From NCBI RefSeq assembly GCF_057098645.1, contig NZ_CM169472.1: 64,000 nucleotides of DNA; one strand, given 5' to 3'. A program made the position numbers. This document shows, piece after piece, positions 18,001 to 21,000 of the stretch. Position 1 is the stretch's first letter, and each line of letters begins with the position of its first letter.

Positions 18001-21000
18001 TTGCGGGAAACAGTGTTTGTTGTCATAACAGATTATCGGGTGAGTTGCGAAAAAGTGATGAAATGATCTTAAAACGGTTAATGATGTGAATACAATGCAT
18101 TTGTGATCTGGATCGCGTTTTCCGTTTCTCTGACGCTGATTCTTTCACGCGTCAGAGAGACGGTAAACATCACGGTTTAATGACGATCAGGAATGTCTGG
18201 CGTTTTGGAGGTTGCGGGTATAGGTGGTCTGACAGGGGAGCGAGGCCTGTTTTTCACCAGGTCTTCATGAGTAACTTTTGGCGGTGTTTCATTTTTTACA
18301 AAAAGTTTGAGGGTCTTGCGCGCCATATGTTTGATAATTTTATCATCACTTAATGATGCTGGCATCAACACGTCATTCAAATCACTTTCATTGGGATTCA
18401 TAAATTGGTGATAGTGTAACAACATATTGGCGAAAAATAAAAACAAGTCCTGAAAATGAGGAGGTTCTTGTTCTGCTAAAAGGGATAAAAAGCAGATGCA
18501 GACTTCGGGTAGTACATGTTTGTTAGAACCTAATGAATCCATCAGGCTTTGCAATAAATCCTCTTTTAATTCGCTGTCCGTTATGTCGAGAATGGCGGTG
18601 ATCAAGTTAGGATCTTTATTGACGAACCATCTGTGAACCTCAGAGTTATTCCATAATCGGGGGAGTATGACAAAATTACCGCGAGAGATAAAATTCAGGA
18701 CAAGCAAATCAAACTGGCGTAAGTAATCTGCAGCGGTATGGTGATCCGGAGGCAGGGGTTCAATATGTGGTGTATGCGCTCTTTTGATGGGAACGCCAGG
18801 GTTGATCATTGGAAATTGTTCAATAAAATCATTCAGAAACAGAAAGAGCACACGCTCGACGCCGGTCTGAAATACGCGCCCCATAGTGACAGGCTTTGGG
18901 TTGGGAGCGCAAAAAATATTAATTTCTCCATCATGGCGGAAATTATCTAAATAAATAGGGCTTAAATTTATTACTACCTGAAATTCAATATTTTCTTTGT
19001 GTCTTCCATTCCTGGCGGGATAAGTGAGTTTAAACTGAACCTTTTCATTGTATAGCGTGTCGTTACCCCGAAAAGAAGTCCTCTGAATATATGATAAGTT
19101 GTCAAGGTTATTAAATATCTTTTTTGTGGCTGAGTTGATGTTTAAAGACGTGCGCCACTCTTCATTACATATTATTGTACTAAGTGCATCAATAAAATCC
19201 TTTAAAACTTCTTTTACCTGCGGTGCAATATTACGTACGGGAAAATCATCAGGAAGAGATATGTAATTGCTGATGCTTACTGGCGTAACCATATTTGCCC
19301 CATATAGTCATAAGTCATCGGAACATCACTATATAGAGCATATTAGCCGCAAGAACTATCAAAAATAGCTCATTGATATCCCTGTCTTGCCGAGTCAGGC
19401 ACATCCAGCAGTTGAATAAATGCCTCGAGCGGACGTGTTTTCGCACCACGACGCCAGACCAGCCAGGTTGTTAACCAACGCCATTGCTCAGCTAACGGCC
19501 ACGCTTCAACCTGGTGATGCCCCGGCATACTTTCCAGCATAGAGCGCGGAATAAGCGCAATGCCTGCTCCTGCGACTACACAGGCCAACATTCCGTGATA
19601 AGACTCCATCTCATGGATAGTTCCCGGAGCGGCACCGTCAGCATGAAACCAGCTCTCGAAGTGGCGACGATACGAACAATTGGCGCGGAAGGCATAAATG
19701 TTACTGCCATTAACCTGACTGGCACGGATTACTGGCGCATGACCTTGTGGCGTGACGATCATCAGCTCCTCGCGGTATACCGGTATCCCGTCAATGGCAG
19801 TATGGTTAATGGGTCCATCAATAAACGCCGCATTAAGTTTTCCCTCCAGCACACCTTCCAGCATAGTGCCGGAAGGGCCGGTGGAAAGTGAAAACTGAAT
19901 TTTGGGATAACGACGGTTGAATTCCGCCAGCGTGGCCGGAATGCGAACTGCTGCAGTGCTTTCCAGCGAACCCAGAGAAAATAAACCTTGCGGCTCATCG
20001 CCAGCGACAACGCTCCGCGCTTCATCCACTAACGCGAGAATTTGTTGGCTATAGCGTAAAAAGTTATGCCCGGCAGGAGATAGACGTAAACGCTGATTCT
20101 CGCGAATAAACAGATCTACCCCCAGTTCTGTTTCCAGCTGGCGTAGACGGGTAGTGAGATTCGACGGCACGCGATGCACTATTGCTGCAGCCTGCGTAAT
20201 GCTGCCAGCTTCGGCAACCGCGTTGAACATCTCCAGTTGGGTCAGATCCATAATATTCTCGATTCGTGAATAAGTGGCTTAATATTATTCATTTTAAAGC
20301 AAGAGTAAATCTGCGTATCTTCATACCATGACTCATAAAGGAGATACCCCGATGACCATTACTCCGGCAACTCATGCAATTTCGATAAATCCTGCCACGG
20401 GTGAACAACTTTCTGTGCTGCCGTGGGCTGGCGCTGATGATATCGAAAACGCACTTCAGCTGGCGGCAGCAGGCTTTCGTGACTGGCGCGAGACAAATAT
20501 AGATTATCGTGCTGAAAAACTGCGTGATATCGGTAAGGCTCTGCGCGCCCGTAGCGAAGAAATGGCGCAAATGATCACCCGCGAAATGGGCAAACCAATC
20601 AACCAGGCGCGCGCTGAAGTGGCGAAATCGGCGAATTTGTGTGACTGGTATGCAGAACATGGTCCGGCAATGCTGAAGGCGGAACCTACGCTGGTGGAAA
20701 ATCAGCAGGCAGTTATTGAGTATCGACCGTTGGGGACGATTCTGGCGATTATGCCGTGGAATTTTCCGTTATGGCAGGTGATGCGTGGCGCTGTTCCCAT
20801 CATTCTTGCAGGTAACGGCTACTTACTTAAACATGCGCCGAATGTGATGGGCTGTGCTCAGCTCATTGCCCAGGTGTTTAAAGATGCGGGAATCCCACAA
20901 GGCGTATATGGCTGGCTGAATGCCGACAATGACGGTGTCACTCAGATGATTAAAGACTCGCGCATTGCTGCTATCACGGTGACCGGAAGTGTTCGTGCTG

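Follow-up and report, generated by a model that had tools for sequence, protein, structure and literature searches.

CbnR and AtzR are LysR-type regulators with two-site 'sliding dimer' operators. The same model has been described for BenM, DntR, OccR and OxyR, in which the recognition site lies near −65 and the activation sites near −35 (PMC4730206). For YneJ, since renamed PtrR and also PggR, control of sad was published by Rodionova et al. 2022 (PMC9068703, preprint 10.1101/2020.04.27.065417), Gao et al. 2021 (PMC8464067) and Gagarinova et al. 2022 (PMC9283627); both the regulation of sad-glsB-yneG by PtrR and the 15-bp box appeared in print in 2020–2022. The purified protein binds GGGTTCTCGATTCGTGAAGGG in fluorescence polarisation, at a site predicted by footprinting (PMC9068703, PMC8464067, PMC9283627). 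The published in vitro probes covered only the 15 bp that we call site 1 (20256–20270), which falls in a ChIP-exo region of around 50 bp described in the text and Fig. S8 of PMC9068703. Reports on the direction of control differ: deletion of ptrR raised sad in one study and lowered it in another, the effector-domain change E97A raised the operon 10- to 100-fold, and the effector itself is disputed, GABA releasing the protein in one study and glutamine strengthening its binding in another.

Here we analyse the ptrR–sad spacer in a 64,000-nucleotide stretch of contig NZ_CM169472.1 (assembly GCF_057098645.1), the whole of which we call the window and which matches E. coli ptrR–sad. We consider it probable that the spacer is a standard two-site PtrR operator superimposed on two back-to-back promoters. 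The genes flanking it are as follows.

19370–20251, minus strand: ptrR (yneJ), LysR-type regulator of 293 amino acids (open reading frame; RefSeq name ptrR)
20352–21740, plus strand: sad (yneI), succinate-semialdehyde dehydrogenase of 462 amino acids (RefSeq annotation)
20340–20343, plus strand: ribosome-binding GGAG of sad

The regulator scores 487.7 bits against the NCBIfam equivalog NF047711 (cut-off 400), which places it in the PtrR family, and Sad scores 1029 bits against its own NCBIfam equivalog (cut-off 855). Between the two genes lie 100 bp (20252–20351) with a GC content of 34%. For conservation we aligned 80 distinct sequences, made up of 79 distinct fetched loci and the window; these sequences are related, so that the counts given below are not counts of independent events. 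The divergent ptrR–sad pair is kept in 80/80 of the fetched loci, and the alignment contains no gap between 20256 and 20330, a span of about 74 bp. Invariant or nearly so across the 80 sequences are TTCT(C), GTGAA, TTAATATTATTCA, TTT, AA, the A and T of the sad −10 hexamer, and A20328.

Both promoters were placed by combining this conservation with published predictions and with mapped transcription starts, the last taken from SMRT-Cappable-seq (Supplementary Data 2 of PMC6131387) and converted as window position = 1635055 − MG1655 coordinate. The Cappable-seq supplements of PMC4782308 hold no entry for the ptrR–sad locus. A consensus scan of the spacer at a threshold of 9 of 12 found no promoter, the actual promoters scoring at most 8/12.

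20276, minus strand: ptrR transcription start, MG1655 1614779 (forward strand), from SMRT-Cappable-seq; 5′ UTR of 25 nt
20284–20289, minus strand: ptrR −10 hexamer AATAAT (−13 to −8), from the mapped start, published prediction and conservation
20328, plus strand: start of sad-glsB-yneG, MG1655 1614727 (reverse strand), from SMRT-Cappable-seq; 5′ UTR of 24 nt
20293–20298, plus strand: sad −35 hexamer TTTAAA, which is TTTTCA in most other genera
20316–20321, plus strand: sad −10 hexamer TATCTT, which is CAnnAT in other genera

The ptrR hexamer has the A at position 2, the T at position 6, the distance of 6 to 9 bases to the mapped start and the conservation of a sigma-70 −10 element: all six bases are invariant in the 80 sequences, and distant orthologs carry AATAAT, AATAGT or AATTAT. 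It had been predicted as the ptrR −10 from an RpoD-holoenzyme SELEX peak, and the sad promoter had been predicted as TTTAAA-17-TATCTT (PMC3946193). On the sad side, the TTT of the −35 (20293–20295) is kept in 80, 79 and 79 of 80 sequences and A20298 in 72/80. Within the −10, A20317 and T20321 are invariant (80/80) and the four other positions vary; its end lies 7 nt upstream of the mapped start, where A20328 is conserved in 79/80.

Over these promoters we place two sites and a conserved block.

20256–20270: PtrR site 1, TTCTCGATTCGTGAA, a TTC-N9-GAA palindrome with T-N11-A at T20257/A20269 (published prediction and binding, conservation)
20288–20302: putative PtrR site 2, TTCATTTTAAAGCAA, beginning 32 bp after site 1 (conservation, matrix, distant loci)
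20279–20291: near-invariant 13-bp block TTAATATTATTCA, quasi-palindrome TnAATAtTATTnA, located −49 to −37 relative to the sad start

Site 1 has the features of a LysR box: it is a conserved 15-bp T-N11-A palindrome beside a divergent LysR gene, binding to it is established in the literature, and it extends from −72 to −58 relative to the sad start (centre −65), which corresponds to positions +7 to +21 in the ptrR transcript. All 80 sequences share TTCT and TGAA, 76/80 have C20260 and 79/80 have G20266; T20257/A20269 and TTC-N9-GAA are complementary in 80/80, and the site is also found in distant orthologs. A 17-bp YneJ site at 1612960–1612976 in the ChIP-exo table of PMC8464067 was set aside, as it apparently uses U00096.2 coordinates and would then fall inside ptrR, at about 20104–20120; a calibration on the PunR site was off by tens of bp as well.

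Several lines of evidence suggest a second site. First, every one of the 80 sequences has TTC at +32, and AA at 20301–20302 is invariant, although the E. coli copy is degenerate, with CAA in place of GAA. Second, a weight matrix built on site 1 gives a mean of −5.2 at +32, against −32.5 ± 10.3 at a fixed position in shuffles, and +32 is the best secondary match in 48/80 sequences. The score is negative in absolute terms because the invariance of site 1 makes the matrix too strict to score site 2 positively, and the fixed-position null was used in its place. Third, in five Pseudomonas PtrR loci there are two full TTC-N9-GAA palindromes 32 bp apart, and relatives at 57, 49, 45 and 42% identity likewise have TTC at +32; the distal half of the site, GAA at N9, is present in Pseudomonas, in one further distant locus (L088) and in Erwinia. 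A published alignment likewise contains a second TTC-N9-GAA at the same offset in Serratia, Yersinia and Erwinia, and its 'YneJ binding area' label covers the site 2 stretch (Fig. S8 of PMC9068703). The exception is L090, a locus at 43% identity in a fimbrial and esterase context, where the second TTC lies at +22 rather than +32; it is probably a paralog.

With the starts mapped to 20328 and 20276, the centre of site 1 falls at −65 and that of site 2 at −33, an arrangement described for LysR regulators. Site 2 runs from −40 to −26 relative to the sad start, over the sad −35, and its first half overlaps the ptrR −10 hexamer. Its form is that of an activation-type site, which copies the recognition motif less strongly and lies two to three helical turns further downstream, here over TTTAAA at 20293–20298. 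Occupancy of this putative site would fit, indirectly, the ChIP-exo area of about 50 bp and the reports of both repression and activation by PtrR.

The block contains the ptrR −10 together with the first half of site 2. Eleven of its 13 columns are identical in 80/80 sequences, the other two in 72/80 and 68/80, and its self-complementary pairs are kept in 80, 2, 80, 68, 80 and 80 of 80. A second MEME motif, AATATTATTCATTTT, had been predicted at window positions 20281–20295 and includes most of the block (PMC9283627).

One alternative is that 20279–20291 is core-promoter DNA and nothing else, made up of the ptrR −10 with its flanking bases and, for sad, an AT-rich upstream element, with PtrR bound at site 1 only, as a roadblock for ptrR and an upstream factor for sad. 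AATAAT does sit at −13 to −8 of the ptrR start under the RpoD-holoenzyme SELEX peak (PMC3946193), the absolute matrix score of site 2 is poor, and the ptrR −10 region could by itself account for the invariance of TTCA at 20288–20291. Yet a −10 element needs two strongly fixed bases, as the two of six in the sad −10 illustrate, against a near-invariant stretch of 13 bp within about 74 bp of gap-free alignment. Further, the −10 model does not predict the distal GAA of site 2 in Pseudomonas, L088 and Erwinia, and the ChIP-exo area measures about 50 bp rather than 15 bp (PMC9068703). We judge this alternative unlikely.

Another alternative concerns a perfect inverted repeat in the same spacer, which a sequence-only reading had presented as the LysR box of the divergent promoter.

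20267–20291: TGAATAA (20267–20273), 11 bases, TTATTCA (20285–20291); a composite of the site 1 proximal half, two A that are not conserved, a spacer that varies, and the ptrR −10 with the first half of site 2

The repeat is exact, as that reading stated, with perfect 7-bp arms. It is only mildly unusual statistically: 10 perfect 7-N11-7 inverted repeats occur in the 64-kb window, and among shuffles of the spacer (34% GC) at least one perfect 7-bp repeat with a gap of 11 occurs with P = 0.010, or with P = 0.12 for any gap from 3 to 20. The description of it as a textbook T-N11-A element did not hold up. Its N11 is the gap between the arms, 23 bases separate the outer T20267 from A20291, and the inner bases form A20273-N11-T20285.

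That a single YneJ dimer binds this 25-bp dyad symmetrically is highly improbable. In its favour are the perfect 7-bp repeat in the right spacer with a shuffle P of 0.01, the pairing of its outer 4 bp in 80/80 sequences, and its position over the ptrR start and −10, inside the 'YneJ binding area' of Fig. S8 (PMC9068703). Against it, the bound probe TTCTCGATTCGTGAA shares just the 4 bp TGAA with the dyad. A LysR-box palindrome measures about 15 bp, and about one helical turn separates the centres of its half-sites; in the dyad the arm centres lie at a distance of 18 bp, compared with about 10 bp in site 1, and the centre of the dyad at 20279 lies at −49 from the sad start 20328 rather than near −65. 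Conservation in orthologous spacers, whose absence the sequence-only reading had named as one refuting outcome, also speaks against the dyad: counted from the outermost pair to the innermost, complementarity of the arms is kept in 80, 80, 80, 80, 65, 41 and 27 of 80 sequences; 16/80 carry the dyad in all its 7 bp, and the outer 4 bp alone are universal. The right arm is invariant and the left is kept only as TGAA(T), A20272 and A20273 drifting freely; in Pseudomonas the pair of half-sites is clearly split between two full palindromes. A better account of the right arm, which the predicted MEME motif also includes, is the ptrR −10 hexamer together with the first half of the putative second PtrR site. 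The dyad is most probably not the LysR box; its arms would belong to two adjoining PtrR sites, the second of them putative, and to the ptrR promoter, and in a control region already characterised the finding of a dyad is ordinary.

An operator of YneJ (PtrR) does lie in this spacer, and the box bound, 20256–20270, differs from the dyad. The operator is also placed for control of sad, as had been proposed and as the literature on PtrR reports. The proposed autoregulation of yneJ fares similarly. The dyad reaches from +10 to −15 relative to the mapped ptrR start and is thus located where autoregulation would act, and the published authors call autoregulation likely; it was the box that had been mis-parsed.

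A further alternative assigns the quasi-palindrome TTAATATTATTCA to another dimeric regulator acting with PtrR. The block is a T-N11-A quasi-palindrome with 5/6 pairs kept and is unlike TTC-N9-GAA; its left part, TTAATAT, is explained by neither PtrR half-site; and it may bear some resemblance to AT-rich boxes such as the Fur box. Compared by eye with the motifs of Fur, ArcA, Lrp, Nac and CRP, it gave no convincing match. The left half is lost in Pseudomonas and other distant loci, where ATTATTCA is kept, AT-rich palindromes arise easily, and no second sad regulator was found in the papers on PtrR consulted here, which together leave this proposal very doubtful. An RNA hairpin formed by the dyad in a longer sad transcript, for which a start is listed inside ptrR (MG1655 1614845, window 20210; PMC6131387), was rejected as weak and not conserved and has a negligible chance of being right: the dyad folds at −4.8 kcal/mol with a z-score of −1.9, 12/200 shuffles fold equally well, the stem is AU-rich with an 11-nt loop, and stem positions 5 to 7 are not kept and show no compensatory change.

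In the two-site operator, site 1 is the strong recognition site and site 2 would be a weaker copy that starts exactly 32 bp on, giving four half-sites paired inward (a> <b c> <d). Inward-facing pairs make b (GTGAAT) and c (ATTCAT) mutually inverted copies, 22 bp apart; this b/c pair would be the dyad, which the two non-selected A at 20272–20273 happen to extend to a 7-bp match in E. coli. A PtrR tetramer on sites 1 and 2 would cover the ptrR start and −10, leading to autorepression, and the sad −35, leading to repression of sad when inducer is absent. With effector, the dimer at site 2 would be expected to shift about one helical turn upstream, onto the block centred at −43, which would free the sad −35 and turn PtrR into an activator. 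For the stronger claim, that the block together with TTCATTTTAAAGCAA forms a functional second PtrR site and that movement of a dimer between −33 and −43 switches PtrR between repressor and activator of sad, the odds are about even. If true, the switch would explain repression relieved by GABA, activation strengthened by glutamine and the activation of the operon by E97A.

The significance of these results beyond the ptrR–sad locus is small. Their outcome is a corrected map of the spacer, which shows the two mapped starts, the two promoters, the proven site at −65 and, over the sad −35 and ptrR −10, a putative second site that is conserved, and this map offers a testable route to reconciling the repressor and activator reports for PtrR. 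It also illustrates how two adjoining sites can give rise, as a by-product, to a perfect dyad in a LysR promoter.

Finally, we compare the spacer with the systems described for this class of regulator. The published PtrR operator concerns the same locus and the same regulator. Its authors called and tested one E. coli site, TTCTCGATTCGTGAA at 20256–20270, which differs from the 25-bp dyad, and drew the two-site reading with its 32-bp spacing only for the branch of Serratia, Yersinia, Erwinia and Pseudomonas. The classical T-N11-A LysR box (PMC3382589) fits site 1, which is an interrupted palindrome of 15 bp lying upstream of its target promoter, and does not fit the dyad. Unlike in the sliding-dimer operators, occupancy of the second site by PtrR and an effector-driven shift are inferred. 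In common with those operators, the ptrR–sad spacer has a divergent regulator gene, a T-N11-A palindrome centred at −65, rigid spacing and a weaker putative site over the −35, together with reports of both repression and activation and an effector-domain mutant that switches the operon on.

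The 100-bp spacer at 20252–20351 separates two divergently transcribed genes:

19370–20251, minus strand: ptrR (formerly yneJ), a LysR-type regulator of 293 aa, annotated 'putrescine utilization regulator PtrR'
from 20352, plus strand: sad, an aldehyde dehydrogenase of 462 aa

Both products pass their NCBIfam equivalog cut-offs (PtrR, 487.7 bits versus 400; Sad, 1029 bits versus 855). The stretch matches E. coli O145 RM9872, where ptrR and sad are annotated, at 100%, and 5,418 of the 5,426 complete genomes of E. coli carry this ptrR–sad stretch. Compared with K-12 MG1655, the spacer shows just two mismatches, at 20253–54; window position p converts to MG1655 coordinate 1635055 − p.

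Several published studies address this spacer. First, Rodionova et al. predicted a 15-bp palindrome, TTCTCGATTCGTGAA, through phylogenetic footprinting (PMC9068703 and preprint), and their ~50-bp ChIP-exo region includes it; purified PtrR binds GGGTTCTCGATTCGTGAAGGG in fluorescence polarisation, GABA releases the protein, and PtrR is described as repressing sad and as a likely autoregulator (PMC9068703). The palindrome maps to 20256–20270 (site 1, TTC-N9-GAA), with the true T-N11-A at T20257 and A20269. Second, Gagarinova et al. (PMC9283627) obtained two spacer motifs by MEME, the 15-mer TTCTCGATTCGTGAA and AATATTATTCATTTT, the latter at 20281–20295; their binding tests covered the 15-mer, glutamine strengthened YneJ binding, and sad-glsB-yneG mRNA was reduced in a yneJ mutant, indicating activation. 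Operon expression is 10- to 100-fold higher with an evolved YneJ variant that has E97A in its effector domain. Third, Shimada et al. (PMC3946193) placed an RpoD-holoenzyme SELEX peak inside the spacer and predicted promoters TTTAAA-17-TATCTT for sad and TTTACT-17-AATAAT for yneJ. Separately, a supplementary ChIP-exo table (PMC8464067) lists a YneJ site at 1612960–1612976, seemingly in the older U00096.2 numbering; converted, it falls about 130–150 bp inside ptrR, off the spacer, and a PunR control site is likewise tens of bp out of place. Base-level placement from this table would first require re-mapping.

For comparative analysis, 80 loci were fetched from GTDB species representatives of genera including Escherichia, Citrobacter, Salmonella, Kosakonia, Enterobacter, Klebsiella, Raoultella, Kluyvera, Pluralibacter and Lelliottia. 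The genes are divergent in all 80, with spacers of about 98–130 bp; column counts are out of the 80 distinct sequences in the alignment, one of them the window and the other 79 distinct fetched loci. Four enterobacterial ptrR–sad loci (L001, L013, L023 and L037) are filed under unrelated or unlikely organism names, such as 'Caldithrix sp.' (98% identical to E. coli PtrR) and 'Chryseobacterium sp. 18061', which points to contamination or mislabelling of the assemblies or bins. The alignment is gap-free across 20256–20330 in every sequence. TTCT(C) at 20256–60 and GTGAA at 20266–70 are nearly invariant, conservation then falls through T20271 (65/80), A20272 (41/80) and A20273 (27/80), and 20274–78 is variable. 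The following block, TTAATATTATTCA at 20279–91, is identical in all 80 sequences at 11 of its 13 columns; TTT at 20293–95 and AA at 20301–02 are invariant or nearly so. Two Raoultella loci (L068 and L077) carry an insertion in the sad 5′ UTR near 20338–20339, downstream of the mapped start, which opens an 11-column block in the multiple alignment.

Within this footprint, a TTC at 20288 lies exactly 32 bp past the TTC of site 1 in all 80 sequences, and nine bases beyond it stands AAA in 67, GAA in 10, CAA in 2 and GAG in 1; the resulting candidate site 2 (20288–20302) reads TTCATTTTAAAGCAA in E. coli proper. A site-1 weight matrix has its best secondary match at 20288 in 48 of the 80, with a mean there of −5.2, whereas shuffled sequences score −32.5 ± 10.3 at that fixed position; the likeness is weak but real. 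In five Pseudomonas PtrR loci, where an MFS transporter gene is the divergent neighbour of ptrR, two complete TTC-N9-GAA palindromes are spaced by 32 bp (for example TTCTCCAAAATTGAA, 17 nt, then TTCAATTTTTCAGAA), and one second site, TTCATTTTTAAAGAA, almost equals the E. coli sequence. TTC at +32 recurs in relatives of 57, 49, 45 and 42% identity, two of them with the partner GAA, and for Erwinia, Serratia and Yersinia the Fig. S8 text of PMC9068703 gives the same pair of sites at 32-bp spacing. That figure also marks a 'YneJ binding area' (ChIP-exo DNA) beside the 'YneJ binding site', its label covering the reverse complement of 20271–20301. Furthermore, the Pseudomonas loci and a number of other distant ones retain ATTATTCA; on the opposite strand it is TGAATAAT, a GAA half-site fused to AATAAT. 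We take the distant relatives to settle the case for a predicted second PtrR site at +32. In two relatives of 43–49% identity (L084 and L090) an esterase gene takes the place of sad or the MFS gene as neighbour; L084 nevertheless has TTC at +32 and, beside its start codon, TTCTC, so the operator layout may predate the link to sad.

We read the operator as 47 bp, 20256–20302, with four half-sites, a> <b c> <d, of which the site 2 pair would be occupied by a second dimer. The sequence-only reading had instead proposed TGAATAA-N11-TTATTCA as a textbook T-N11-A box for yneJ autoregulation and sad control. The repeat is present precisely as described in the divergent spacer (TGAATAA, 20267–20273; TTATTCA, 20285–20291; 7 bp, perfect), its right arm inside AATATTATTCATTTT, and control of sad by YneJ is borne out by the literature (PMC9068703, PMC9283627). 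However, N11 is here the stretch between the two arms, 23 bases separate the outer T from the outer A, and the published site has only TGAA of the left arm in common with the dyad; autoregulation is called likely in PMC9068703 too, with another site than this dyad as the box. By itself the dyad is only mildly unusual: the 64-kb window holds 10 perfect 7-N11-7 inverted repeats, and spacer shuffles give P = 0.010 for a 7-bp repeat at gap 11 and P = 0.12 for any gap of 3–20. All 7 bp persist in just 16 of 80 orthologous spacers, the pairs being complementary in 80, 80, 80, 80, 65, 41 and 27. Together with column conservation, these counts show a fixed right arm, a left arm fixed only as TGAA(T), and no selection for extra complementarity. 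The dyad is half-sites b and c (GTGAAT, ATTCAT), which in E. coli and some relatives happen to match over 7 bp; the claim as stated had been published before, and this dyad is a mis-parse of the known operator.

SMRT-Cappable-seq (PMC6131387, Supplementary Data 2) maps three transcription starts at this locus, which fix the promoter geometry:

20328 (MG1655 1614727, reverse): start of sad-glsB-yneG (b1525/b1524/b1523)
20276 (MG1655 1614779, forward): start of ptrR (b1526)
20210 (MG1655 1614845, reverse): start of sad (b1525)
−72 to −58 from 20328, centre −65: site 1 (+7 to +21 from the ptrR start)
−61 to −37 from 20328, centre −49: the dyad
−49 to −37 from 20328, centre −43: the invariant block
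−35 to −30 from 20328: sad −35 hexamer, TTTAAA
−12 to −7 from 20328: sad −10 hexamer, TATCTT
20289–20284, minus strand, −13 to −8 from the ptrR start: ptrR hexamer, AATAAT

The start at 20328 is the conserved A (79/80) already predicted here from the nAnnnT hexamer (20316–21), whose only invariant positions are A20317 and T20321. A mechanical ORF list takes the in-frame ATG at 20328 as the beginning of sad, adding 8 codons (MTHKGDTP); because that ATG base is the mapped transcription start and 20328–20351 is unconserved, the sad start at 20352 is the real one. On the ptrR side, TTTACT (reverse complement of 20304–09) and AATAAT (of 20284–89) are 14 bases apart, versus 17 in PMC3946193, and we therefore assign no ptrR −35 element. 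The start at 20210 (+) lies within ptrR, 142 nt 5′ of the sad ATG, so its transcript would cross the entire operator; it may be the 'sigma-E promoter' that PtrR papers cite from EcoCyc, and inspection by eye upstream of 20210 found no convincing sigma-E or sigma-70 elements. An internal glsB-yneG start (MG1655 1613280, window about 21775 (+), 29 nt before the glsB start; PMC6131387) lies between sad and glsB, so glsB expression may partly escape the PtrR-controlled promoter.

Other readings of the spacer were weighed as well. That the invariant block is promoter DNA only seems unlikely: it accounts for AATAAT, but leaves 13 fixed bases, the gap-free spacing and the GAA partner of site 2 unexplained. 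A different second regulator on the quasi-palindromic block is kept alive by its left half, TTAATAT, for which the PtrR half-sites do not account, yet we consider it improbable. Equally improbable is a single PtrR dimer on the 25-bp dyad: its arms are unfavourably spaced, positions 6 and 7 of the arms are not kept in the alignment, it is centred at −49, and Pseudomonas has two separate palindromes. An RNA hairpin is scarcely credible, being weak (−4.8 kcal/mol, z = −1.9) and without conservation in the 80-sequence alignment.

In the two-site operator, the right arm of the dyad, read on the minus strand, is TGAATAA, the ptrR −10 region. PtrR on sites 1 and 2 would block both promoters, covering the sad −35 as well as the start and −10 of ptrR; on effector binding, the second dimer would move about one turn upstream, to the invariant block centred at −43. 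Such a shift would explain the reports of both repression and activation, as well as the E97A phenotype. For LysR regulators, a high-affinity site is described near −65, with sites of low affinity near −35 and −10, and their 'sliding dimer' shift frees the −35 upon activation (PMC4730206). The layout of the PtrR operator agrees with this pattern, and we infer that PtrR may shift in the same way.
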